A stretch of DNA of 64,000 bases from Candidatus Moraniibacteriota bacterium (GTDB lineage Bacteria; Patescibacteriota; Minisyncoccia; Moranbacterales; UBA1568), in assembly GCA_016699425.1 (NCBI GenBank), contig CP064975.1:526098-590097 (forward strand), given 5' to 3'. Below, piece by piece: positions 11,457 through 52,525 of this stretch. How positions within the stretch are numbered: the first letter of the stretch is position 1; each line of letters opens with the position of its first letter. The position numbers and the translations under genes are program-made. The notes beneath the pieces are model-generated. The model saw only the letters and a program-made list of their open reading frames with translations. It searched no databases and was not told where the DNA came from.

Positions 11457-12044
11457 TTAATAGAATAATCGTTTCTCCTCTGTCTGTAGCAGGGTCATCA
11501 GTTCATCAAAATACGGTTGAATCTCTGGTGAAAGGGCCACCTTGTCTTTCTTATTCTGGTACAACATATCGAGGGTAATCGACTTCTCCCGCCATGTCCG
11601 ACCACCGTCGAGATACATCTTGAGAAGTGGCTCGATCTTGTCGAGGGCATAGACGAAGCGGCTTTCGGCATCCCCCCTCGTCACATAACCACGAATCGCC
11701 ATGTGCATCTCAGGGACTTCCGGAAATTCTGCTACCAGTCGTTCAGCCGCGAGCCGTTCGCGCTCAGGTTTCGAGGCGAGCAGTTCCTTGTCTTCACTAT
11801 ACACATACGTATCCCCAGCGTACACCTCGACCAGATCATGGGCCAGTGCATAGCAAAGTACCTTCTCCCGATCCAAGGGGAATTTCCCTGTATCCAGGAT
11901 ATACCACGCGAGCATGGCCAGGCTGTACGAATGCTCCTGATCGTTCTCCCACCGCTCGCTCTCTGTCACATGAACCACTCGCTCCACTTTTTGGAGTTCG
12001 TTCAGAAGCCTAGCGAACGAAAGGAGACGTTCTAGATTTTTCAC
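11457..12044 (-). CDS. HD-domain phosphohydrolase (YfbR-like)
   Basis: HSYSLAMLAWYI…ALAHDLVEVYAGD. Confidence 0.8.
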   Translation of the reverse strand: MKNLERLLSFARLLNELQKVERVVHVTESERWENDQEHSYSLAMLAWYILDTGKFPLDREKVLCYALAHDLVEVYAGDTYVYSEDKELLASKPERERLAAERLVAEFPEVPEMHMAIRGYVTRGDAESRFVYALDKIEPLLKMYLDGGRTWREKSITLDMLYQNKKDKVALSPEIQPYFDELMTLLQTEEKRLFY

Positions 12045-12075
12045 AATACTTGGCGCAACTTAAATGTGATGATCT

Positions 12076-12372
12076 TCACCATGGTGTTCCAATCAACCCG
12101 CTCCCCATAGTATCCCCGGTACGCCGCAAGCATCGCTTCCCGGCTCTCGTAGCCCTCGTGACCACGGAAATCCGCTTCTTCGATTGCTCCGAGAGTCTTT
12201 TCCGAACAGTCACGATCCGCGCCTGGGCGAACTCCTCCCCGGTCGACTTGTTGATAAACGATAGCTCATCGCCGACGGAGAGAGCCTTGTCATCGAACAT
12301 CCGCCACGTCGAAGTCTTTGCTCCAGAGAGCACCAGTTTCGATAGGCTGTCCGTAAACTTCAGCGTTTTCAT
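12076..12372 (-). CDS. ASCH-domain protein (YqfB-like fold)
   Basis: 98-aa beta-barrel protein, SLSKLVLSGAKTSTWR…. Size and pattern are typical of ASCH. Confidence 0.65.
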   Translation of the reverse strand: MKTLKFTDSLSKLVLSGAKTSTWRMFDDKALSVGDELSFINKSTGEEFAQARIVTVRKRLSEQSKKRISVVTRATRAGKRCLRRTGDTMGSGLIGTPW

Positions 12373-18569: not shown

Positions 18570-18637
18570 ATAAAAAAGGCTTGAATAGAGCCATTTTATC
18601 AGACCAAGGGCAGGGGGTCAAAGGCCACTTGGGGGCG

Positions 18638-18877
18638 CTAGAAACCGCAATACCCGACGCAGCTGGCAAGAGAATAGAGCAATGGTACCGCCACCGTCCC
18701 CGAGAGGACGAAGGAGAGGAGGGCAACCTGAAGTTTCGAGAGCCAGTTCCGTTTCCAGTATCGAAAGAAGAGAAAGAATAAGATCGAGAGCACGCTGATG
18801 ACGATAGCCAAAACCAATCCCGCAATCATCGGATCAGCCATTACCAGATACCCAAAGCGTTCGATTGGCGTAAGCAT
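18638..18877 (-). CDS. Small membrane protein, hypothetical
   Basis: 79-aa hydrophobic ORF. Weak support. Confidence 0.3.
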   Translation of the reverse strand: MLTPIERFGYLVMADPMIAGLVLAIVISVLSILFFLFFRYWKRNWLSKLQVALLSFVLSGTVAVPLLYSLASCVGYCGF

Positions 18878-18895
18878 AGGTCTCTCAAAAAAGTA

Positions 18896-19183
18896 TCAAC
18901 AGCGGAGCGTCGTGCCACCGACGGGCACAGTCGGGAGACTCTGCTGCCAGTGCTGGTCGAACACCCGCAGGGCGCAACCGAGGAGGCTCACGATAAGCAA
19001 GATGAGTGCAAAAGTATACGCGGCCAGACGCAACCGACGACGGACGACTGCCGAATGGACGAGCAATCGGAACAGTTCAAGGGCGAGGGCTATGACTGCC
19101 GAAAAATATCCCACCAGGTATGCCCCTTGGATCGGATACTGATACGGGCTCGACGGGATACAAGCCAGGGCAACAGACGGCAC
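18896..19183 (-). CDS. Small membrane protein, hypothetical
   Basis: 95-aa hydrophobic ORF. Weak support. Confidence 0.3.
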   Translation of the reverse strand: MPSVALACIPSSPYQYPIQGAYLVGYFSAVIALALELFRLLVHSAVVRRRLRLAAYTFALILLIVSLLGCALRVFDQHWQQSLPTVPVGGTTLRC

Positions 19184-19240
19184 CAGAATGAGCGCGAGAC
19201 CGAGGAGTGCGGTGAGGAGAAAAGGTATAGGTGGAGCGGA

Positions 19241-20572: not shown

Positions 20573-21337
20573 TCAACTCCCAGCGATCGTATCGCGCTCT
20601 CGGCAGTAGCGCTCGATCAGGGCCAATTGCTCCGGCGTATTGATCCCGAGTCCTTCGATCGGATCCTCGATCGTATAGACGGCGACCGTATGACCATCGT
20701 CACGAGCGAACTGGATCATATCAGTGAGATACAATTCATGCGCCGCATTATTATCATTTAACCGGTCGAGCGCGTCCCAGAGCCACGCAGCATCAAAACA
20801 ATAGTAGCTCGTATTCACTTCACGGATGGCGCGTTCGACCTCGGTCGCGTCCTTGTACTCGACGATACGGTCCACGGCCCCATCCGCACCGCGCACGATA
20901 CGACCGAAATGTGCGAACTGAGCATTGTCTCCGTCAAAGTCCGGGACGACCACACTCGCGAGCACGACCGTGGCGCCCGTTTCGGCGAGAGTCGAGAGCA
21001 TCCGTTCAAACGTCGCGGTCGAGATAAGCGGATGATCGCCTGGCGTCACGAGGACGCGCGTCACCCCCAATGTCTGCAGTGCCTCGCGGGCGCACCGGAC
21101 AGCGTGACCCGTCCCAAGTTGCTCGGCCTGGTGGACATAGCTAACCCGATCTCCGAGGGCGGCCATCACCTGCTCCCGGCCGTGACCAACGACGACCACC
21201 GGCTTCTCAACCAATGACCGCGTATTGCGCAGAATTTGCTCGATGATGGGTACTCCCTGCACCGGATGCAGCACCTTGGGGAGATCCGACCCCATCCGGG
21301 TTCCTTTGCCCGCCGCGAGTATGACGATTTGATTCAT
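20573..21337 (-). CDS. glmU: UDP-N-acetylglucosamine pyrophosphorylase (GlmU N-terminal uridyltransferase domain only; no left-handed beta-helix acetyltransferase domain)
   Basis: ILAAGKGTRMGSDLPKVLH, AEQLGTGHA, VEYKDATE and YLTD motifs are colinear with the E. coli GlmU N-domain. The ORF ends at the inter-domain linker. Confidence 0.8.
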   Translation of the reverse strand: MNQIVILAAGKGTRMGSDLPKVLHPVQGVPIIEQILRNTRSLVEKPVVVVGHGREQVMAALGDRVSYVHQAEQLGTGHAVRCAREALQTLGVTRVLVTPGDHPLISTATFERMLSTLAETGATVVLASVVVPDFDGDNAQFAHFGRIVRGADGAVDRIVEYKDATEVERAIREVNTSYYCFDAAWLWDALDRLNDNNAAHELYLTDMIQFARDDGHTVAVYTIEDPIEGLGINTPEQLALIERYCRERDTIAGS

Positions 21338-21339
21338 AG
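21285..21339. repeat. 55-bp perfect direct repeat (copy A) containing the glmU start codon and first 17 codons
   Basis: Identical to 22881..22935. Similarity continues in diverged form for ~25 bp more. Confidence 0.85.
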
Positions 21340-21439
21340 GTCTAGGGACGATCCTCCACTTTGATAACGAGTAAATACCCGAGTGCTCTCGTGAAACCAA
21401 TTTCTGCCCATCATACTGCCAATCCCCTGTAGGGTAAGA

Positions 21440-22153
21440 CTATCTATCAACACGAGACGAAACCGCTCGAGCTCGGAGGAGAAATACGGTTTCCGCTTTG
21501 AGCTGATTTTTCACAAATGCTTTTTGCTGCTCATCAATCAGCTCGCCCAGACCCGCGAGCAGTGCGGTCTCTGGGATACGCTCGATGAAACTGGCACACG
21601 TTTCAAGATACTCCGGGACTGAAACGATAGCGTATGCCTTGAGTACCGCAGCATCGATATCCCACCCCTGCTTCAGAAAAAAATATACATCAAACAGATC
21701 ACGAGCAGCAAATTTTTTCCGCTGTATCAGCGCTACAAGTTTCGCCGAGAGCATCGAAGTCTTCGTCATCACGAGCGCCGCTATCCCCAGATAACTTTTC
21801 ATCTCATAGGTCGCACCGATGTTCCGCGTGTTGATTTCCACCTTGATCTGATGCTCCCCTGTACTGTATGAAAGAGCGAAGAAGATGGTGGCGAACTTCT
21901 GCTGTTCGTCTTTGATCTCACCGTAGCGCTCGAGAATCTGGCGAATCTTTCGAAAAATCAGCTCCCGGTTTTCGTTCGAATCATCAAGCAGATCAAAATC
22001 AAGATCCACCGAGAAACGAGGCAGCTCATAGAAGAGGAGAGCGGCGGTACCACCTTTGAATCCCAAAAAGGACGAAATAGACACATCAGAATAAATGTCT
22101 TTTAAGATCTGCGTCATGATAAGCTTATGCTTGGCACTATCGAGGGTGGGCAT
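21440..22153 (-). CDS. AbiEii-type nucleotidyltransferase toxin (DUF1814-like), type IV TA system
   Basis: FLGFKGGTAALLFYELPRFSVDLDFDL…DLFDVYFF. Paralogous (~45% identity) to 29848..30543. The start is approximate. Confidence 0.7.
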   Translation of the reverse strand: MPTLDSAKHKLIMTQILKDIYSDVSISSFLGFKGGTAALLFYELPRFSVDLDFDLLDDSNENRELIFRKIRQILERYGEIKDEQQKFATIFFALSYSTGEHQIKVEINTRNIGATYEMKSYLGIAALVMTKTSMLSAKLVALIQRKKFAARDLFDVYFFLKQGWDIDAAVLKAYAIVSVPEYLETCASFIERIPETALLAGLGELIDEQQKAFVKNQLKAETVFLLRARAVSSRVDR

Positions 22154-22715
22154 ACTCTTGCATATATCTCTCCAAAACCTTTTCAAGTCTCTTACTCTTG
22201 TAGAGCGGTACGATCGTCTGACAACGTTTCCAGTCTATCCCACGGAGATTGTCGAAATAGTAATCCGGAAACAGATAGAGCCGATCGAGAAACGCCCGTT
22301 CCGGGATCGCCTCAGAGAAATATCCCCGATCCACTATCCCTGCCGGATTACCGAGAATGTCATCTCGCAGTTTTCGGTAGACGATTTTCTGACCAGCGAC
22401 CACGATCTCGCGAGAGAGATAGCTCGCAATAAAAATGGAATCATAGTACTGGAAGGTGACACCCGCACGAGCCAGGACGGTCTCGAAACTCACGTATGCC
22501 GGGGTGGAGATGCGCACCGCCAGTTCGCACCGATCGTATGTTGCATCCTTTGCAAAGACCCCTCGACGCAAACGGATGAGCTTCCCCGTCCTGACATAGT
22601 ACGCGAGCTTGGATTTGAGACTGTCCATCGACTTGGTACCACTGAGAAGAGCGATCTCTCGACTCGTGAAGACCGTTTGTTTGGACCCATAGAGAGCGAC
22701 GAGAAACCCGTCCAT
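22137..22715 (-). CDS. AbiEi-type antitoxin/transcriptional regulator
   Basis: N-terminal wHTH with TSREIALL…GKLIRLRRGVFA (the G.L.R…RGVY signature). It lies immediately upstream of and overlapping the AbiEii gene. Confidence 0.7.
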   Translation of the reverse strand: MDGFLVALYGSKQTVFTSREIALLSGTKSMDSLKSKLAYYVRTGKLIRLRRGVFAKDATYDRCELAVRISTPAYVSFETVLARAGVTFQYYDSIFIASYLSREIVVAGQKIVYRKLRDDILGNPAGIVDRGYFSEAIPERAFLDRLYLFPDYYFDNLRGIDWKRCQTIVPLYKSKRLEKVLERYMQEYAHPR

Positions 22716-22880
22716 AAGTATATAGCCTATAGGTAATAATTTTTCTTACCTTCAGTTTACTATAAACCTAGACATTGTCAAGCCCTCCCCACCGTCAAGC
22801 TACTCCCGCAGTACATACCAGCAATCACCACTCGCCAATACCCAAGCGTTCCCTTTCCCCGCCTCAGAACCTTGGGCGTC

Positions 22881-22935
22881 TCCGACCCCATCCGGGTTCC
22901 TTTGCCCGCCGCGAGTATGACGATTTGATTCATAG
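22881..22935. repeat. 55-bp perfect direct repeat (copy B): remnant duplicate of the glmU 5' end
   Basis: Encodes MNQIVILAAGKGTRMGS, then diverges (SETPKVLRRG versus SDLPKVLHPV) and stops. It is a decaying displaced copy. Confidence 0.8.
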
Positions 22936-23036
22936 ATTCAGCCGTTTCCGCTCAGTCAATCCTCGCTCAGTCCTCTCCCACAATACCGAAATCCTCCGCC
23001 GAACACAAACCCGTGTGGGTCCGGCGGAGGTTGGGG

Positions 23037-23921
23037 TTATTCTGTCGGGGTGGGCGCAGGTGGCGTAGTGACTGCATCAGGGGCCACCCCAGAACCCTGG
23101 GCTTCAGGCGATATCGGCGCTCCTTCGCTCGGTGTGGACGCTATGTTTGGGACTTCCGGCACGGTGACTGGATCGGTCGGAGGCGGAATCACGACGGCAG
23201 CGTCCGATGGTGTCGAGGGTATCTCGGGAGCTATTTCAGGAGCGATCTCAGGGATTGCCTCCGGCAGCAGCGGGACCGCAGTGTCTGATCCCCCGGTGAT
23301 CGCGTCTATTTCCGGTGCTTGTATCGGTGCCGCAGCACCAGTCGACACGAGGGTCAAATCCGAAAATATGTCCGCATCATTCCAACCGATTCCGGGCGCG
23401 GGATAGGGCGCCTGCCACGCGGTGAAAGGAAAGTGAAGTGAACAGGACAGTCCAGCTGCGAGCACTGTGTCCGTCGGCAGTGAAACGATGAAGAGCCACG
23501 GTTCAGTCTCCCCCGCCGAGAGCAAACTTCCATCCACGAAGCCGAATCCGGCGACATTCCCTGCATACTTGGTCGAGCCATCTCGGAGGGCTGACAGCTG
23601 CAGCGCATCACAAAGCGCTGCATCCCCAGTCGCAGAGACCGTCGAACGATACAGAAGGGCACTCGTCCCCTGATTCTTCACCAGACCACCAAAATTGACA
23701 CTCCCGCCAGACGGAAGCGCCGTGTCACCGGTCGGATTGGTCAGTGTGTCTTCGGTCGCCAGATCGATACTCCCCCCATGCAGGGTATTCCCCCCTGACT
23801 TGGCTTCACTGGTGAAGACTGACCAGGTATCATGCGTCACCACCACGGTGAACGCGAGACCGAGGAGCACAAACGCTCCCAGACGGATTCCTTTCTTGAT
23901 GCTTGGTTTTCGGGCTTCCAT
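23037..23921 (-). CDS. Secreted protein with a SipW-cognate-type signal peptide and a Pro/Ala/Thr-rich C-terminal tail (TapA-position gene of the locus)
   Basis: N-terminus KKGIRLGAFVLLGLAFTVVVTHDTWSVFTSEAKSGGNTLHGGSIDL. C-terminal PEIAPEIAPEIPSTPSD…TPPAPTPTE repeats. Confidence 0.65.
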   Translation of the reverse strand: MEARKPSIKKGIRLGAFVLLGLAFTVVVTHDTWSVFTSEAKSGGNTLHGGSIDLATEDTLTNPTGDTALPSGGSVNFGGLVKNQGTSALLYRSTVSATGDAALCDALQLSALRDGSTKYAGNVAGFGFVDGSLLSAGETEPWLFIVSLPTDTVLAAGLSCSLHFPFTAWQAPYPAPGIGWNDADIFSDLTLVSTGAAAPIQAPEIDAITGGSDTAVPLLPEAIPEIAPEIAPEIPSTPSDAAVVIPPPTDPVTVPEVPNIASTPSEGAPISPEAQGSGVAPDAVTTPPAPTPTE

Positions 23922-23935
23922 ACGCTCCTTGTAGA

Positions 23936-24591
23936 CTAGACAATTTTCCGCCTCCGAACCGGCACCGGTGGTGGTGTGAATACCGGTCGGGATGGTTGCG
24001 GGCGAGCATTGGTACGCGGATCCGAAAAGGTCAAACGACGCGTCATGACTTTTTCTTCGACGTTCACTTCTGAATGCTCGACAGATTTCTTCCGCGCGAG
24101 CCGCCGGACCTCTTGGACGATCGACCAGGCCTCGCTGAGGATGATCAGGACCGCGGGCAAGACAATGAGCCAGATGAAACCGGACTTGGTCTGCGCATAC
24201 GCGACTGGATAGCCGAGGTAAGGAATCGCGAAGTAAGTCTTGCCGACGATTTCTCGCGGTGTCACGGTCGTCGGATCCGACTCCTCATTAGCATCCCCCT
24301 TCGTCTGATACCGTAGTCCGGCCTCGGTGACCCGTTTGTCGACGATGCGGTGCGTGACGGACTGCTTGTCACTGGTCGCCACCGTCACGATGTCCCCACG
24401 CCATAGTCACTCGCCGCTCGAACCAGGATGAGGCTTCCCGTATGCAGCGTCGGTTCCATCGAACCCGAACGGACGACGAAGAGCTTCAGCATGTTCGGCA
24501 AGGGCAAGAAGGACGAAGCCATCACCAGGACGAAGACGATGACGACTCCCGCCATGACTCCCTGGAGGATGGTACCGAGTCGCTTCAGCAT
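23936..24591 (-). pseudogene. SipW-like type I signal peptidase (S26, archaeal/ER-type), split by a 1-nt frameshift at a G4 run
   Basis: Upstream ORF 24385..24591 carries SGSMEPT and ends …SDYGVGTS*. The next frame continues (G)DIVTV…VTHRIV…TKGDANEESD, the box C-E motifs. The shift is at + strand CCCC 24394-24397. Confidence 0.7.
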
Positions 24592-24606
24592 AGTGGACGG
24601 TGGAGA

Positions 24607-26064
24607 TTAGGGCGCGAACGGTGTCGGATTATTGCGAATCTGTTCGACTTCGAACGAGACGTCCGCCTTGAAGACATCCGTCTGCGCTTCATTGCCGGTA
24701 TCGACGGGCAGATCCCAACCAATACCGAAGTAGTACGTCGTCGAGCCGACCAGACGACCATCGGCGGCCAGCCCATTGCAGAGTCCGTAATTGGTGTGGC
24801 CATCAAGGACTGTACAGCTATGTGCACTGTATGCGGCTGCCAATCCCTGCCAGATATTGTGCGTTTCACTCGGCGTATTGATCTCTCCGGGTGTGACGAG
24901 CACCGGTTCGCCCTCCTGCTGGATATTGTCACCTTCGTCGACGTCGATGCCTTTGCCCTGGAAGCCAGGTGTCGCACCTTCATCCAACCAGATGAAAAAA
25001 TTCAGATTCGAGCGCAAATCCCCGAGACCGAGTCCAGGTACTTGGCAGACACCGGGGCCTTCGGCGACTATTTCGGAACTGGTGCAAGTATTGTCATCAT
25101 CCGCCGTCACCGTGACATTCATCCGGCCCCAAGCATCATTGTCATAAACATGGAGAGAAACCGTGTCTTCACCCACGTCTCCGGGCTTCACATCGGCAAA
25201 GTTGAAGAACTTGTGCGTCGGACCGAGGTCGGTAAGCGTCCAGGTACCATCACATGGCGTCCCGATCAGGTCACCACTGGCAGTCGCCGGACATGCGAGC
25301 TCGTGCACGTCGACCGCATCGAGGAAAGTCCCGAGCGAATTTTCTGTGCCGAGATCCGCGAATGAGATCTCAGTCGTGGCACCGGTCGCAAAGAAATCAT
25401 ACGTGTGTGGCGTCCAGGCGATTGCTCCCCCGCCCGCCGTGGACACTGTATCGAGCAGTACACCATTGGCCTTCACCTCTAGAACATTTTCACTCGCGGC
25501 CGTATTCGGTCGCGGTGAGTACTGGAATGAGAGCCGATACTTCTTGCCCGCAACCGTCGGGATAGACTGCTTGATGCGGATCGAGGCGGGTTCCCCGGTC
25601 TGCGGATCGCTCGGTCCTCCCCAGTCGCTATCGAGCTCCGTATACTGGTCTCCTTCAGCAGCAGCTCCGAGCACACCCTCATGGTATTCGATTTTGGCGA
25701 GCGCAGGTCGCCCACCACCGGATGTCACCCACTGTACATCCCAGGCCAAGCCGCCCGTACTATTGTCGAAGATCTGCCATTGATTCGGGTCCGTCACTTC
25801 GGGATTCTCGAACCCACCATTCGTAATCAGATTGCCACCTGTCGGCGTGCAGGTGCCCGGCAGCTGCCAGGTATTGCCATTTTCCCCCGGCGTACAGACG
25901 AGCCCATTGTAATGCGCTTCGCTGTCCACCTTCAGATCCAGCGCACCGGCGGTGAAGGTGTTGCCGACCGAGGTCTCGGTATCCGAGAAGAACGAATACG
26001 TCCCGCCCGCGACCGCCGCCACGGCGACGAGGATGATGAATGAACTTTTCGCGACTTTCCACAT
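24607..26064 (-). CDS. TasA/camelysin-like secreted protein with SipW-cognate signal peptide (paralog 1, 485 aa)
   Basis: MWKVAKSSFIILVAVAAVAGGTYSFFSDTETSVGNTFTAGALDLKVD. Shared motifs FFNFADVKPGDVGEDTVSLHV and DVSFEVEQIRNN. Confidence 0.75.
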   Translation of the reverse strand: MWKVAKSSFIILVAVAAVAGGTYSFFSDTETSVGNTFTAGALDLKVDSEAHYNGLVCTPGENGNTWQLPGTCTPTGGNLITNGGFENPEVTDPNQWQIFDNSTGGLAWDVQWVTSGGGRPALAKIEYHEGVLGAAAEGDQYTELDSDWGGPSDPQTGEPASIRIKQSIPTVAGKKYRLSFQYSPRPNTAASENVLEVKANGVLLDTVSTAGGGAIAWTPHTYDFFATGATTEISFADLGTENSLGTFLDAVDVHELACPATASGDLIGTPCDGTWTLTDLGPTHKFFNFADVKPGDVGEDTVSLHVYDNDAWGRMNVTVTADDDNTCTSSEIVAEGPGVCQVPGLGLGDLRSNLNFFIWLDEGATPGFQGKGIDVDEGDNIQQEGEPVLVTPGEINTPSETHNIWQGLAAAYSAHSCTVLDGHTNYGLCNGLAADGRLVGSTTYYFGIGWDLPVDTGNEAQTDVFKADVSFEVEQIRNNPTPFAP

Positions 26065-27537: not shown

Positions 27538-29079
27538 CTAGTTCTCGAAGTCAGTTACTTCGCCGTCAAATTCAATCCAATCGACGAAACTGGTCTCACC
27601 AATCGGTCCAGGATGTCCGACGCGGACACCAAAGAATGAGTCAGTCGAGCGCGTTTCGGCATTTGGATAGTTGGCCAATACATCAGCCCACGTACGCGAA
27701 GTAGTACCAGGAGTTGTTCCGGTAATATCCACCAAACCCACTGGCCAGGTCGGACCAGAGTAGGTCCAATTACCCGCCAAGGCGTCTACCGTCGTCCAGG
27801 TATTCACAGCCACGCCGGTCGGCACCTGCACCAAGCGACGCTGCCACGTATCGCTGTTATTGAAGTCAACATTGAAGTGGAGGTAAGGCGTCTGTGAAGA
27901 AGCCGAGGCATCATAGATCCGATACTTCAAAGATCCGATGTCCGACAGTTTCACGTCCTTGTACTTGTAGGTCGCGATGTTGTAGCGGGGATTGCCGATG
28001 TTAGTTCCGATGTAGAGCGGATCGGTGCCGTTATCGAGCACAAAGCGTGCTGCACCAACAGTATCCGGACCAGCGACAATTTCATTTGCACCACCAGTAC
28101 CTGCAAACTGGTTTGTGGTCATGATGAACGCTGCGTCATTCGAATCATTGTGAAAGAGCCAGCTGTTCGGAGCGGCGATGAGCTCCGGAAGGCTCTCGGC
28201 CAAGTCGCCCTGGCGCACGACACGTGAACAGGAGAAATTCGGATTATTGCGCGCCTGCTCCACTCGGAAGGCAACATTCGCCACAAGCGAGTCTGTCTGA
28301 GCGACATTGCCCATGGTCGAGCCATCACAAGTAATGACACCAGCTGCAGCCGTCATATTGCCTGCACACCAGGCGAGACCAATATAGCTCGTACTGCCAC
28401 CAGCGAGTGCGCCAGTCCCAGCATCTGCCAGCCGATATGTCCGGCCGCCGAGCACATCGCTCGCAGAACCGACACCATTCGAGAAGAGCGGCAACTCATT
28501 GGCTTGCCAAATATTGTCTCCCTCAGCAGTATCAACATTTGACCCCTGAAGACCCGGCGTCGTACCCGTGTCTGCCCATGCGAAGAAGTTCAGGTTCTGC
28601 GCGAGCTCGCCATCGAAGTTATTGCCCGCGTTCTCGACCGCGTCCCCGGCGTCCGTCTCCGGATCAACTGTACTGACATCATCATTCTTCGTGATATCGA
28701 TATCCACACACGCGAAGGCATCATTGGAATCGACATGAAGCGAGATGGTATCCTCACCACTATCTCCCGGTTTCACATCAGCAAAGTTGAAAAACTTTTG
28801 TGCACCGAGGTTGGTCGCTGCCCATGTACCGTCACACGCACTCCCGATAACCGGGTACTGAGGGACAGTAGCTGTTGCGCTTGGTTCAAGCTGCCACAAG
28901 CCCGCAACACAGACGGCATTGTTATAGTGCTGCTGACTATCGACGGTTAGGTCAATCGCGCCGGCGGTGAAGGTATTGCCGGTCGATGTCTCGGTATCCG
29001 AAAAGAACGAGTAGGTCGCACCACCCACGGCGACGGCCACCGCGAGCGCCACGAGGCCACTCTTCCAAATCTTTTGCAT
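27538..29079 (-). CDS. TasA/camelysin-like secreted protein with SipW-cognate signal peptide (paralog 3, 513 aa)
   Basis: Start set at MQKIWKSGLVALAVAVAVGGATYSFFSDTETSTGNTFTAGAIDL. KFFNFADVKPGDSGEDTISLHV. NVAFRVEQARNNP. The tracked ORF extends to 29196. Confidence 0.75.
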   Translation of the reverse strand: MQKIWKSGLVALAVAVAVGGATYSFFSDTETSTGNTFTAGAIDLTVDSQQHYNNAVCVAGLWQLEPSATATVPQYPVIGSACDGTWAATNLGAQKFFNFADVKPGDSGEDTISLHVDSNDAFACVDIDITKNDDVSTVDPETDAGDAVENAGNNFDGELAQNLNFFAWADTGTTPGLQGSNVDTAEGDNIWQANELPLFSNGVGSASDVLGGRTYRLADAGTGALAGGSTSYIGLAWCAGNMTAAAGVITCDGSTMGNVAQTDSLVANVAFRVEQARNNPNFSCSRVVRQGDLAESLPELIAAPNSWLFHNDSNDAAFIMTTNQFAGTGGANEIVAGPDTVGAARFVLDNGTDPLYIGTNIGNPRYNIATYKYKDVKLSDIGSLKYRIYDASASSQTPYLHFNVDFNNSDTWQRRLVQVPTGVAVNTWTTVDALAGNWTYSGPTWPVGLVDITGTTPGTTSRTWADVLANYPNAETRSTDSFFGVRVGHPGPIGETSFVDWIEFDGEVTDFEN

Positions 29080-29500
29080 AGGTTTGGTGTTATGGTTTAT
29101 GCTGCTCCGCTCGATCCCGGCCTCCGCTGCACATCGACCCATCCGCTGCTCCAGTACAGTACCGAAAGCCAGAGGATCCACGCAGTTCTCTCGCACAGCT
29201 TCCGGAGTAACCCGAAATCGGCTCGAGAGAATGAGGGAACGGAATTTGAGAGAAGCAGATTTCGCTATTTATGACTTCGACGACTCGCACTCGACCTGTG
29301 CTTTGATGTTGCAATTGATAAACGACAAGCGCCCTCCTCGCTCCTATCGTTGCTTTTTTATTTTTTTTCTTCTCCTCGAAAGTTTTGTCGAGTTGAGAAA
29401 TATGTTTGCCCTCCCACAAACACTCATTGTTTCAACAATAGAGCCGATTGAAAATAAGTCAAGCAAATAAAAAATTTTCAGAACCAAACAATGTGCGACA

Positions 29501-29847: not shown

Positions 29848-30543
29848 TCATTTCTCACTCTCTCCCAGAGTTCTCAACAAGAATATTGTCTCGGTTCGTA
29901 ACTTTGCGCGTGCCCAATCTTTCTGTGATTCCGTCAGTAATTCCCCGAGTCCATCGAGAACATGCCGATCACTCATTTTCTCTAACTGTTCCACACACAG
30001 CGCCACAAGTCCTGCAAATGACATGCCCGAACGAGATTCAACAATCGCCTTATTAATCGGCCAATGATTTTTCGCAAAGAAATAGACATCAAATATATCT
30101 CGACTCGTTTTACCAACACGTTCATACATCGCCATCAATTTATGCGCAAACATATCTTCTTGTGCCATGACCAGCAGTGAGATACCCAGTATCGTTTTTA
30201 CCTCATACCGGGAACCGAAATTTCTGCGATTGACCTCAATCTTGATATGCTGAGACTGTTTGTTGTATGAAATCACGGAAATGAGATTGAAACGCTTGTT
30301 TCGAGAATCAATCATCACCCCATAATTTCTGGCAATAGTGTTTATTCCCTCGAACACTGACTGTTCTTTAGTTTCATCCAAAAGATCGAAGTCCAAATCG
30401 ACTGAATGACGATTCAATCCATAGAATAACAAAGCGGCTGTACCGCCCTTAAAGCCGAGGAATGGAGCCAGTGTTGTATCGGAGTAAATGTCTTTTAAAA
30501 TCTGTAACAATATACTCCTGTGCTTCGAATAGTCCAATGTCAT
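29848..30543 (-). CDS. AbiEii-type nucleotidyltransferase toxin (second, AT-richer copy)
   Basis: FLGFKGGTAALLFYGLNRHSVDLDFDL…DIFDVYFF. 4-nt ATGA overlap with the upstream AbiEi gene. Confidence 0.75.
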   Translation of the reverse strand: MTLDYSKHRSILLQILKDIYSDTTLAPFLGFKGGTAALLFYGLNRHSVDLDFDLLDETKEQSVFEGINTIARNYGVMIDSRNKRFNLISVISYNKQSQHIKIEVNRRNFGSRYEVKTILGISLLVMAQEDMFAHKLMAMYERVGKTSRDIFDVYFFAKNHWPINKAIVESRSGMSFAGLVALCVEQLEKMSDRHVLDGLGELLTESQKDWARAKLRTETIFLLRTLGESEK

Positions 30544-31166
30544 ACGTTTCCTCGATAATGCTCGAAATATTGTTGTACTTTTTTCTCCATTTGTTTGTTA
30601 TGATATATTGGCAAAATTTCAAATACTTTGTCCCAGTCCAATACGTCCAAATGATCGAAATGATAGTCTTTGCTCACACAAACTCGATCCAGAAAAGCGC
30701 GCTCTTTCGTCGCGACGGAGTACCCTTCCGAATGATTGATACCAGCTGGGTTGCTCAAAATATCTGTTTTCATCCGCACAAAAGAAATTTTTTGTCTATC
30801 GACGACCAGTTCTCTCGAGACATATGACGCGACAAAAATATTCCCATAATACTGAAAATTCACTCCAGTACGAGTCAATACGGTCTCGAAGCTGATGTAG
30901 GATGGGGTATATATCCGAGTCGCCAACTCAAAACGATTATACTCTCTGTCCTTCGCATAGACACCACGATGGATGCGGACCAACTTTCCCGCCTTCGCAT
31001 ATTTACTCAATCGAACACACAGTGCATTTTCTGCTGCTTCACCCCACAACAAAGCAATATCTCTCGTGGTAAAGACCGTTTTCGGAGAGCGAAGCAATGC
31101 TTCCAGGTATTCCCCTTTTTCTGGCTTTCTATTCATATATGCACTGTATATTACCTTAAAACTCAC
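30540..31166 (-). CDS. AbiEi-type antitoxin (second copy)
   Basis: TTRDIALLWGE…GKLVRIHRGVYA. Confidence 0.75.
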   Translation of the reverse strand: MSFKVIYSAYMNRKPEKGEYLEALLRSPKTVFTTRDIALLWGEAAENALCVRLSKYAKAGKLVRIHRGVYAKDREYNRFELATRIYTPSYISFETVLTRTGVNFQYYGNIFVASYVSRELVVDRQKISFVRMKTDILSNPAGINHSEGYSVATKERAFLDRVCVSKDYHFDHLDVLDWDKVFEILPIYHNKQMEKKVQQYFEHYRGNV

Positions 31167-47973: not shown

Positions 47974-49337
47974 TCAATAGACCGTGATGGGACTACTCAC
48001 CGTGCAATTGTTGGCTTCATTTGACTCTGTGACCGCACTTTGATAATCAGCGCAACCCTTGAAGTAGTACGTGCCACGGGCACTGATCTTCATGCCGCCA
48101 TCGTACTGCTCGCGTTCTTCACAACCGATGCAGAGTTTGGAAGCCTCGGTCCCATCATCGGTAATGTACGTCCAGGTACCGCCCGTGCCCGGACCCATGA
48201 ACCAGTACGAGCTCCGGATTGCTGCTGGTGAGGGAGCGGTGCCGACGTTTTTCACGTACATCGCTGGATAGAACTTGCTCCCCGCCTTGATCGACGCTGA
48301 CCCACCCGCTGGACCAACCGCTCTCACGATGAAGTCGGGTTGGGGTGGTGGTTTGGGCGCCAACGTCACCGTCAGGCTGGCTGAGTTGTTGGTCTCATCT
48401 GTTTCCGGTTGTGTTCCCTGGTAGTCGGTGAAAAAAGAGAGGGTGCAGGTTCCGACCACATTCGGCAATTGAACCGGGGTGAGGGTCTCTTCCCAAGCAC
48501 TCGCACCAGCCGTGAGGCTGCTGGCCATGGTGCCATCGTCAGTGAGCAGTATGTTCGATCCCCCATTGCAGGAAACCGTGTAGGCACTGCGGATGTCAGC
48601 TGTGGCATTGACCGTGCCTTGATTGGTGATGGTGGCGCCGAGACGGACGAAGTCGCCAGCGTAGGTAGGGGCTTGGAGGAGGGTGAAGCCGCTCGGGGTG
48701 AGGTCGACATCGGGGACGTTGACTGTCCCTTCGACGACTTCAATCACTGCTTCGGTACTGCAGTTGTTGGACTCGTGCTTTTCGTCGTGCTCGCCGCCGT
48801 TGTTGTGATCGTCCTGGGGATGATCGATACAGGCGACAATATTGTAAATGCCGGGTTCCGTGATCCACTCCCGGATGACCGTATTCTTGGTCTCGGTGTG
48901 GGTATCGCCCGGTTTCAGGTTGTCGCACTGAGTCGTCGTACTGTCGAGCCTCCGCCAAGCACCGTCTCCTGAGTGGGGATCCTCCTTGTAGCCCCGGGAG
49001 AGGTAGAAGTGACTGGTGATGGTGGTGGGTTCGCCGTCCTTGATGGGACAGGTACCTTCTCCGATGTTTTCAAACTGGGCTTTGGTGTTGAAGGATTCGT
49101 TCAGGCCATACTTGTACGTCTCCGTGCCCCAGGGGGTGGTGAGCCAGGTGCGTTTGGTGATGAAATCGGGGGGGACGAGGGTGGGTGGCGCTACGCTTTG
49201 GATGGGATAGCCCTGCCCCGTACCGTAGACGGCTTTCGACGCGTTCCCGGCGACGACCGTACCCGTGTAGACATTGATGGTGTTGATGGTCCAATTCGTG
49301 CTCATCGCTTGCGCAATTTCCTGAGCACTGGCTGTCT
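47974..49337 (-). pseudogene. C-terminal ~450-aa beta-rich domain of an IS-disrupted secreted M23-peptidase fusion gene
   Basis: The tracked ORF 47974..49305 (MSTNWTINT…) has no signal peptide and no RBS. Its frame is open upstream through 49328 and joins in-frame, across IS copy 1, with the M23 segment (…GETA-S-AQEIAQA-MSTNW…). Confidence 0.7.
49329..49337. repeat. 9-bp target-site duplication TGGCTGTCT (left) of IS copy 1
   Basis: An identical 9-mer sits at 50541..50549, immediately outside the inverted repeats. Confidence 0.8.
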
Positions 49338-50540
49338 GATACCGTTACCTTTTCAGTTGATGGAAAGTGTTGTTCTTGTTAGACTAGAGCCTCAAACCGG
49401 CTGTAAAGTTGACTTTAAGCCTTAAATTTCATTCAGCATGTCAAAAAAATGGTCACGTCACTGTCCCCGCTGCAGCAGTCGTGAGACGGTGAAGAATGGC
49501 TCCCAAGGCTACAGCCATCACTACCTGTGTCGTGCTTGTGAACATTCTTTTTCTCGTTACTTCGGGCATGATCCGAGACTGCTGTGGATCGAGCATATTG
49601 ATGGGGTACCGTTTCGTAAATTAGGAGATGAATATGGTCTCTCGGGAAAACAAGCCTTCGTGAGAGTTACAAGAGAATTAGCACAACTTCCTTCCAATGA
49701 CGCTCTGACGCAAACCCTCTGTGACCCGAGACGCTTCTCGGGCATCCTTGTCATGGATGGGAAGTATGTGGCGGTCAAAGGCTTTGCGAGAAAGATTCCT
49801 TTTCTCTACGGCATTGATTACTTGACCCACGATATTCCCTTCGGGGCTTTGTATACAGCGGAAGATGAGGTGTCCTTCTCACGTTTCTTCCATCAAGTGA
49901 AGCAACTTGGCTATGATCTTCAGATCGTGGTCGCCGATGACCGCTCTGGCCTGAAAAAGGCTCTCCTGAAGGTTTTTCCGTCGGCTCGGCTGCAGCTCTG
50001 CCACAACCACTACCTGGAGAATATCCGGGTGGCTTTACGGGTGCGGAGTGAAGAGCGATACCGGCCCTTCTTTTACGCTCTCAAGGAGAGCGTGTTTGGA
50101 GAACGAGAGGATGTGACGAACGCCATTCGATCTTTTGCCGCGAGCATCAAGAGAGAGAAACGTCTGCTCAAAACATCGTAAGTGAGATAGCGTACCGGCA
50201 GGAGGAACTCTTCAATTACTTGCTGCTGCCAGGCTGTCCCAACAACACCAATCTCATTGAACTCTACAATTCCCATCTCAATGGGAGGCTGAAGACGATC
50301 AAGGGTTTTCAGAGTTTTGCTTCGGCTCAGTGTTGGTTGAATGCGTGGATGATACGGAGGAGAACCAAGCCTTTTACAGATTGTGAAGCTAAATTTAAAT
50401 ATTTGAACGGTTACCCTTCACTCTCTTTGAGTATCAAAAAACAGGCTCGCTGGCCTGAGACATTAGTAAAACTAGGCGTAGAAGCAGTAAAACTTTTTGA
50501 AAAAAAGCGCCCTACTATCAACTGAAAAGGTAACGGTAAC
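49338..50540 (+). mobile_element. IS1-family insertion sequence, copy 1 (1203 bp)
   Basis: 24-bp terminal inverted repeats (GATACCGTTACCTTTTCAGTTGAT / GTTACCGTTACCTTTTCAGTTGAT on the reverse strand). The ORF 49438..50181 encodes an InsA-like zinc finger CPRCSSRETVKNGSQGYSHHYLCRACEHSF plus an InsB-like DDE region. It is frameshifted at A4 (50170-50173) from its C-terminal part, 50220..50525. Confidence 0.85.
49438..50525 (+). pseudogene. IS1-family transposase, copy 1, split by a single-base deletion in an A-run
   Basis: LLKTS* here versus LLKNIVSEIAYRQEELFNYLLLPGCPNN… in copy 2, which has A5. Confidence 0.75.
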
Positions 50541-51323
50541 TGGCTGTCTCCCCCAACATCTTGTGGATGAATCGCATGAAGTTCCACCAGAGACTGCCCT
50601 CCGGGAGTACTTCACCCGGATCTTCAGCTGCAGCTACGGCATTGAACATGGGATGAAGGTCATCACAGATCTCTCTTCCAACTTCGAACATCCACGGGAT
50701 ACCCGCTCGAACGACTGGATCTGATAGGCCCTTGTACCACATCGTCGCAGTTTCACATGCGACAGTCTTGGGCGACCAACACACATGACCCTGACAGGCA
50801 ACCTGCTTTTCTGTTGAGGGATTGAAGGCGAAGTGCGTTTGGATGAAGGCGACTGGGTTGGTGAAAGTGTTGGTGCAAGTACTATTTCCCTCGCACGGAG
50901 TCCTCCATTCTGAGTTTGCCATCATGCCCCAACCACTTTTCGCCATAGTGCGAAACGGTCCGTCATGAATGGCGAAATGCAAATGATCACCATAATCCCA
51001 GTGACCAATCTTTCCGATCGACACACCACCTTCTACTTCGGCGTACTTAGCTGGAAGGCTGCTACACTTGAGATGACCATACACAGCAGAAAACACCATG
51101 CTTTCGGTAGTTCTGTGCTCGATAACCAGGGCACAATTACCTACACCCCACTTTTTACCATCACCATCATCGTAGCTAATGTAGACTACTTTCCCATCCG
51201 CAATGGCATATGCATCTTTTCCAAGACCATGCATCATATCAACACCAACGTGGTAGAAGCCAGCAAAGTAGCTACCATATTTCGGTGCCCCGCCAGCTAA
51301 CCAACCTGCCCCAGGCTGAAAAT
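50541..51323 (-). pseudogene. Central M23 metallopeptidase segment of the IS-disrupted fusion gene, lying between the two IS copies
   Basis: HxxxD (YHVGVD) and HxH (GDHLHFAIHDG) M23 motifs. The tracked ORF 50518..51237 reads through the target duplication into the IS inverted repeat before stopping. Confidence 0.75.
51315..51323. repeat. 9-bp target-site duplication GCTGAAAAT (left) of IS copy 2
   Basis: An identical 9-mer sits at 52526..52534. Confidence 0.8.
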
Positions 51324-52525
51324 GATACCGTTACCTTTTCAGTTGATGGAAAGTGTTGTTCTTGTTAGACTAGAGCCTCAAACCGGCTGTAAAGTTGACT
51401 TTAAGCCTTAAATTTCATTCAGCATGTCAAAAAAAATGGTCACGTCACTGTCCCCGCTGCAGCAGTCGTGAGACGGTGAAGAATGGCTCCCAAGGCTACA
51501 GCCATCACTACCTGTGTCGTGCTTGTGAACATTCTTTTTCTCGTTACTTCGGGCATGATCCGAGACTGCTGTGGATCGAGCATATTGATGGGGTACCGTT
51601 TCGTAAATTAGGAGATGAATATGGTCTCTCGGGAAAACAAGCCTTCGTGAGAGTTACAAGAGAATTAGCACAACTTCCTTCCAATGACGCTCTGACGCAA
51701 ACCCTCTGTGACCCGAGACGCTTCTCGGGCATCCTTGTCATGGATGGGAAGTATGTGGCGGTCAAAGGCTTTGCGAGAAAGATTCCTTTTCTCTACGGCA
51801 TTGATTACTTGACCCACGATATTCCCTTCGGGGCTTTGTATACAGCGGAAGATGAGGTGTCCTTCTCACGTTTCTTCCATCAAGTGAAGCAACTTGGCTA
51901 TGATCTTCAGATCGTGGTCGCCGATGACCGCTCTGGCCTGAAAAAGGCTCTCCTGAAGGTTTTTCCGTCGGCTCGGCTGCAGCTCTGCCACAACCACTAC
52001 CTGGAGAATATCCGGGTGGCTTTACGGGTGCGGAGTGCAGAGCGAGACCGGCCCTTCTTTTACGCTCTCAAGGAGAGCGTGTTTGAGAACGAGAGGATGT
52101 GACGAACGCCATTCGATCTTTGCCGCGAGCATCAAGAGAGAGAAACGTCTGCTCAAAAACATCGTAAGTGAGATAGCGTACCGGCAGGAGGAACTCTTCA
52201 ATTACTTGCTGCTGCCAGGCTGTCCCAACAACACCAATCTCATTGAACTCTACAATTCCCATCTCAATGGGAGGCTGAAGACGATCAAGGGTTTTCAGAG
52301 TTTTGCTTCGGCTCAGTGTTGGTTGAATGCGTGGATGATACGGAGGAGAACCAAGCCTTTTACAGATTGTGAAGCTAAATTTAAATATTTGAACGGTTAC
52401 CCTTCACTCTCTTTGAGTATCAAAAACAGGCTCGCTGGCCTGAGACATTAGTAAAACTAGGCGTAGAAGCAGTAAAACTTTTTGAAAAAAAGCGCCCTAC
52501 TATCAACTGAAAAGGTAACGGTAAC
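51324..52525 (+). mobile_element. IS1-family insertion sequence, copy 2 (1202 bp)
   Basis: Same inverted repeats and ~99% identity to copy 1. The transposase is broken by two other 1-nt homopolymer deletions (GG>G near 52084, TTTT>TTT near 52121). It also carries E>A and Y>D substitutions. Confidence 0.85.
51424..52451 (+). pseudogene. IS1-family transposase, copy 2, disrupted by two frameshifts
   Basis: Tracked ORFs 51395..52102 and 52035..52451 overlap in different frames. Confidence 0.75.

Follow-up and report, generated by a model that had tools for sequence, protein, structure and literature searches.

A split SipW-like signal peptidase gene in a Moranbacterales genome is probably a homopolymer under-call of a Nanopore-based assembly

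Two consecutive minus-strand reading frames of the circular genome CP064975 are halves of one signal peptidase gene, and the frameshift between them probably reflects a homopolymer under-call, GGGG for GGGGG, that went uncorrected when the metagenome was assembled from Nanopore reads. A sequencing error is the likeliest cause of the break because this assembly received little short-read correction and the gene is intact in every related assembly. In the organism, the locus probably encodes an intact, membrane-anchored signal peptidase I of 218 aa and of the ER/archaeal (SipW-like) type, with predicted catalysis by Ser44, His81 and Asp100/Asp106, which would cleave TasA/camelysin-type signal peptides off four adjacent secreted or surface proteins. 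The frameshift itself is most likely no biological feature. Our analysis covered a window of 64,000 nucleotides of this genome (CP064975.1, forward strand, positions 526,098 to 590,097), and all coordinates count from its first letter (Table 1).

One peptidase gene is read as two fragments

Re-reading of the minus strand and of the list of open reading frames (ORFs) reproduced all coordinates and translations of the original prediction, which had described a peptidase gene interrupted by one missing base. Near position 24400, the minus strand reads GAC TAT GGC GTG GGG ACA TCG TGA. The 68-aa ORF contains SGSMEPT and ends in SGSMEPTLHTGSLILVRAASDYGVGTS before the stop (SDYGVGTS and stop). The 150-aa ORF begins MTVATSDKQSVTHRIV, its GTG start overlapping the TGA stop of the 68-aa ORF as GTGA, and carries a C-terminal hydrophobic segment followed by a basic tail. 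Adding one G to the GGGG run in silico produced a single ORF of 218 aa that reads SDYGVGDIVTVATSDK / SDYGVGDIVTVATSDKQSVTHRIV across the junction, restoring the GDIVTV box as had been predicted.

The repaired protein matched the TIGR02228 profile (signal peptidase I, archaeal/ER type) in one stretch, covering profile positions 17-153 of 158 with 99.9 bits (curated cutoff, 51.85 bits), and on this whole-protein score belongs to the ER/archaeal-type signal peptidases I. Without repair, the N-terminal fragment scored 28.6 bits (profile 17-61) and the C-terminal fragment 54.0 bits (profile 75-153). The split-gene pattern is not due to chance, as the two fragment matches are complementary on the profile and the repaired match is unbroken; the assignment of both ORFs to one S26 peptidase is borne out by the same matches.

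The repaired protein further aligned with human SEC11A (7P2P) and SEC11C (7P2Q) over the Ser, His and Asp boxes (E ~5e-6). Ser44, His81 and Asp100/Asp106 fall in line with the SEC11A boxes. A family alignment of 16 sequences showed conservation of 90% or more at these residues, at G43, M45, P47 and G66, and in the T-H-R and G-D-x-N...D boxes. The sequence flanking the G run is coding and conserved, with a near-invariant GDIV. As assembled, Ser44 lies on the N-terminal fragment and His81, Asp100 and Asp106 lie on the C-terminal one; neither fragment would be expected to be active alone, because the catalytic Ser is separated from His and Asp. No second peptidase with the same Ser-box motif is encoded in the 64-kb window.

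Table 1. Positions of the peptidase gene, its neighbours and the other features discussed in the text.
Feature	Position	Strand	Description
SipW-like/ER-type signal peptidase I gene, whole	23936..24591	-	218 aa with one G restored
N-terminal fragment, 68 aa	24385..24591	-	Hydrophobic anchor and SGSMEP box with catalytic Ser44
C-terminal fragment, 150 aa from GTG	23936..24388	-	His81, Asp100 and Asp106 (repaired numbering)
GGGG run (+ strand CCCC)	24394..24397	-	Apparent frameshift site; one G fewer than every related contig
Presumed substrate 1, 485 aa	24607..26064	-	SipW-dependent-type signal peptide (TIGR04088) and choice-of-anchor C/DUF642 domain; intact
Presumed substrate 2, 441 aa	26132..27457	-	Camelysin/TasA-type N-terminus and choice-of-anchor J domain; intact
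Presumed substrate 3, 552-aa ORF	27538..29196	-	TIGR04088 signal peptide; intact
Presumed substrate 4, 294 aa	23037..23921	-	N-terminus THDTWSVFTSEAKSGGNTLHGGSIDL matches the pattern of the other three; intact
ASCH-domain gene, second unique split gene	12041..12372	-	Shift at cggaaaag (~12196-12203); one added base repairs
IS copy A (MULE/IS256-like transposase)	49337..50540	+	Internal control
IS copy B (MULE/IS256-like transposase)	51323..52525	+	Internal control

A SipW-like peptidase beside presumed substrates

Four adjacent minus-strand genes start with the TasA/camelysin pattern T(Y/W)S(F/V)F..(E/A).S.GNT...G.(I/L)(D/E)L. Profile matches (TIGR04088 in two of the proteins, the Peptidase_M73 N-terminus in three) together with the motif read by eye substantiated the earlier claim of four adjoining proteins with SipW-type signal peptides, so that the peptidase is indeed encoded beside proteins of this kind. 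Presumed substrate 4 had no HMM family match, its pattern being read by eye, and the likely start of presumed substrate 3 is an internal MQKIWKS. We infer from this arrangement that the four neighbours are substrates of the peptidase. Their genes (5.3 kb) are intact, and there is therefore no sign of pathway decay. In presumed substrate 1, the choice-of-anchor C/DUF642 protein, a short patch (~25700..25800) is hypervariable: substitutions cluster there, the indels keep the frame, and the patch differs among strains that are otherwise 97-99% identical.

B. subtilis SipW is the ER-type signal peptidase I of the tapA-sipW-tasA operon. The peptidase described here shares with it the ER/archaeal-type S26 signature (SGSMEP Ser box, HR His box, GDxN...D box) without a Lys general base, an N-terminal membrane anchor, and a position next to proteins with TasA/camelysin-type signal peptides (TIGR04088, Peptidase_M73 N-terminal). 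In contrast to SipW, it comes from CPR/Patescibacteria, has a long basic or proline-rich C-terminal tail, adjoins four presumed substrates with choice-of-anchor C/J domains instead of TasA/TapA, and is split in two as assembled. Its score against the Bacillus SipW equivalog NF046067 was 118.2 bits, below the cutoff of 190, and the peptidase is therefore SipW-like but no strict SipW orthologue. A SipW-like identity, as originally predicted, is thus supported by the passed TIGR02228 cutoff and by neighbours with SipW-type signal peptides. SEC11A/SEC11C and archaeal signal peptidase I are similar in that their Ser, His and Asp boxes align and the TIGR02228 cutoff is passed; unlike SEC11A/SEC11C, the peptidase is bacterial, stands alone, with none of the SPC partner subunits known here, and has a second hydrophobic segment close to its C-terminus. 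It is an added member of the ER-type/SipW-like signal peptidases with cognate TasA-type-signal substrates, in Patescibacteria.

The gene order of the peptidase and its neighbours is common to all 12 related contigs considered below. Moranbacterales genomes carry a conserved cassette in which a SipW-like peptidase is joined by three or four large proteins whose signal peptides are of the TasA/camelysin type. These proteins probably act at the surface or in fibres and would bear on an episymbiotic lifestyle.

The gene is intact in all related assemblies

Searching 5.8 billion proteins (E <= 1e-5) returned 168 homologues, and the best 120 of these 168 are all single proteins, nearly all of 175-245 aa. 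Contiguous orthologues, whose absence would have spoken against the split-gene claim, are hence abundant. The best homologue matches the repaired protein from end to end (100% identity, 100% coverage) and is encoded on JBARUC010000005.1 of the metagenome-assembled genome (MAG) GCA_049645545.1 (contig L001). NCBI and Logan both contain the 218-aa protein in its repaired form; the 68-aa and 150-aa products (QQR79174.1, QQR79173.1) were found solely in the source genome's own NCBI record.

We compared the G run of the source record with that of 12 related contigs (L001-L012; one NCBI MAG, three JGI metagenomes and eight Logan runs, from at least 12 samples), which are 84-99% identical to the window at the DNA level. 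All 12 carry GGGGG and an intact 218-aa gene. L001 is 98.9% identical over 4.57 kb (window 25983..21415), and inside the peptidase gene GGGGG versus GGGG is the sole difference, with zero substitutions. The remaining contigs, 84-97% identical to the window, have the GGGGG in a common local sequence; alignment with L009 (97.3% over 6.6 kb) revealed no indel other than the missing G that breaks a frame. Exact-protein look-ups with the 68-aa fragment, the 98-aa ASCH product and the 294-, 441- and 158-aa neighbours retrieved no short-read contig of the same strain. Scans for the junction in a genome-contig and a metagenome-contig collection, neither of which includes this lineage, gave no match.

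Homopolymer deletions in the same assembly

CP064975 is the MAG EsbW_18-Q3-R4-48_MAXAC.278_cln, a single circular contig of 1,217,328 bp (o__Moranbacterales, f__UBA1568; Supplementary Data 3 of Singleton et al. 2021, PMC8012365), which derives from the Esbjerg W 2018 sludge sample (BioProject PRJNA629478). Its coverage was 18.38x Nanopore and 9.79x Illumina, and it was built with CANU 1.8 on Nanopore reads, Racon with Nanopore reads, two rounds of medaka 0.6.5 and one Illumina Racon round (Singleton et al. 2021, PMC8012365). The consensus thus comes from long reads that are prone to error, with limited polishing by short reads.

Two IS copies in the window served as an internal control, with ten Logan contigs from independent runs (L013-L022) as the reference set. 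Copies A and B are 99.4% identical and differ by five one-base indels, all homopolymeric, and two substitutions. Relative to the ten short-read contigs, copy A has no substitutions and two one-base deletions (A8->A7 at ~49443, A5->A4 at ~50170), and copy B has two substitutions and three one-base deletions (GG->G at ~52085, T4->T3 at ~52119, A6->A5 at ~52422). Summed over both copies (2.4 kb), this amounts to five homopolymer deletions, no insertions and two substitutions, and the reference contigs carry the longer allele at all five homopolymer sites. One-base homopolymer deletion, the form of the peptidase break, thus recurs in five out of five IS indels. In the same line, the seven annotated transposase copies of the genome measure 208, 225, 247, 247, 299, 345 and 375 aa and share one sequence up to the homopolymer at which each shifts frame. 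Of these forms, other assemblies contain only the one of 345 aa; exact look-ups of transposase variants repaired in silico gave no match.

Nanopore consensus errors that survive in repeats, which short reads cannot polish, are expected to leave such a pattern. The ratio of indels to substitutions in the IS copies likewise argues for error, although real copy-specific indels are not strictly excluded, because short-read contigs collapse IS copies into a consensus. Each IS transposase in the window is broken at different homopolymers, in a genome with at least seven copies of differing ORF length. Between the two copies lies an M23-peptidase ORF (50518..51237, minus strand), in a composite-transposon-like layout.

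Outside the repeats, a codon-usage scan for same-strand frame switches, combined with Pfam checks, revealed one broken unique gene in the window beyond the peptidase. In this ASCH-domain gene, the repair extends PF04266 coverage from 1-58 to 1-101 of 103. The frameshift may be genuine, because a Logan contig also has the truncated product of 98 aa and there is no close intact orthologue, the nearest intact homologue being 67% identical; variants repaired in silico had no match in exact look-ups. Further candidate frameshifts, in the overlapping same-strand pairs GT4 43321/42111 and TrmD/FtsW 37954/36855 and at GT4 53878 and methyltransferase 55045, were rejected since their domains are complete. 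The unique sequence of the assembly is mostly, though not entirely, clean. Polishing therefore worked in most places, as the suspicious pairs are complete and the 6.6 kb compared hold one frame-breaking indel.

Weighing the explanations of the missing base

The peptidase site resembles R9-era Nanopore consensus indels in being a one-base homopolymer deletion relative to short-read assemblies, in stemming from a pipeline of CANU, Racon and medaka 0.6.5 with one ~10x Illumina Racon round, and in having five counterparts in the unpolishable IS repeats of the window. It differs in lying within unique, supposedly correctable sequence, and a 5-nt run is at the short end for such errors. An artefact is favoured because the discrepancy shares class and direction with the homopolymer deletions of the IS copies, because Illumina coverage was low (9.8x) with a single Illumina polishing round, and because the gene has zero substitutions relative to the 99% identical relative and the 5.3 kb of partner genes are intact. 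As a rough expectation, if raw errors arose at the rate of the IS copies (~2 per kb) and polishing removed 95-99% of them, one to several residual indels would be left per 64 kb. Such indels would be expected to outnumber real strain-specific pseudogenes, which at ~1% divergence should amount to a fraction of a gene per 64 kb. An error is thus the most likely explanation at this particular base. The original prediction had listed an assembly error, a fresh inactivating mutation and a phase-variable switch without ranking them; the first is now favoured, the second keeps a minor share of the probability and the third has found no support.

A genuine and very recent deletion, by which the dominant Esbjerg W strain lost one G and, with Ser set apart from His and Asp, its dedicated peptidase, appears unlikely. 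Four TasA-like proteins would then remain unprocessed or go to another peptidase, and the frameshift would mark a fresh, strain-specific loss of the peptidase/TasA-type system. G5 runs slip in vivo and are natural slippage hot spots, real disruptions exist in the lineage (the 26-bp GH81 deletion in three short-read contigs of relatives, described below), the split ASCH product recurs in a Logan contig, and the assembly shows few other faults in its unique regions. However, the gene shows zero substitutions relative to L001 next to four undecayed substrate genes, the split products are missing from every other assembly while 12 out of 12 relatives are intact, and the assembly is biased to homopolymer base loss with only 9.8x Illumina data for polishing. 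A change in mononucleotide-tract length within a gene that serves surface or secreted proteins, as genes under contingency loci usually do, also recalls phase variation, in which the G tract would toggle the peptidase by slipped-strand mispairing and hence the processing of the four surface proteins. We regard this as very improbable. Known mononucleotide contingency tracts usually span at least 7 nt and vary in length, but this tract is 4 nt long in the window and a uniform 5 nt in the 12 other contigs, with no length polymorphism across many samples and strains; phase variation is therefore unsupported. Moreover, the tract is flanked by conserved coding sequence and abuts the near-invariant GDIV.

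The GGGG run might also be real with the peptidase still expressed, either through a -1 tRNA-Gly slip or as two coupled polypeptides that would reassemble in the membrane, which on the sequence at hand we consider the least credible account of all. A -1 slip on G_GGG would read GTG GGG and then GAC, yielding VGDIV and the repaired 218-aa protein exactly, and the GTGA overlap of the first ORF's TGA with the second ORF's GTG, preceded by a G-rich stretch, resembles a translational-coupling junction that would link translation of the two fragments. If true, a CPR bacterium would possess a leaky or split dedicated signal peptidase controlling the maturation of four surface proteins. Yet none of the homologues covered (the best 120 of 168 and the 12 relatives) is shifted or split at this point, the relatives being in frame with G5, and both versions are unsupported for this reason. 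Conservation of the shift among homologues, expected of programmed frameshifting, is thus lacking; a conserved stimulatory element is absent, a run of four Gs ahead of a sense codon makes a weak slip site, and the break of a split enzyme would fall inside the conserved core, beside the GDIVT strand.

With a homopolymer under-call as the preferred explanation, a public closed CPR genome annotates one peptidase as two proteins, QQR79173.1 and QQR79174.1. The same record also contains several shortened transposases and the split ASCH gene, most of these breaks being consistent with homopolymer deletions left uncorrected in Nanopore data. Studies that deduce gene loss or pseudogenisation from such MAGs of Patescibacteria would be misled, which makes this chiefly a point of quality control.

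Other features of the window and its relatives

An AbiEi/AbiEii toxin-antitoxin pair (21440..22715, minus strand) lies between the two copies (21269..21339 and 22865..22935; 93% identical) of a 71-bp duplication of the 5' end of the NTP-transferase gene; a second AbiE pair is located at 29848..31166. At the position of the first pair, the relatives L002-L005 carry a cluster of GH81, GT2 (cellulose-synthase-like) and membrane-fusion genes. The GH81 gene is intact (703 aa) in L003:7143-9254 and split in L002, L004 and L005 by a deletion of 26 bp between direct repeats of TGGACTATCA; the 2.4 kb compared are otherwise the same. The GH81 split in these relatives is a genuine polymorphic gene disruption. 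Finally, ~670 nt without a convincing ORF (18570..19240) extend from the SecA start (18569) to the end of the hibernation-factor gene (19241), where the gap in relatives measures ~180 nt.
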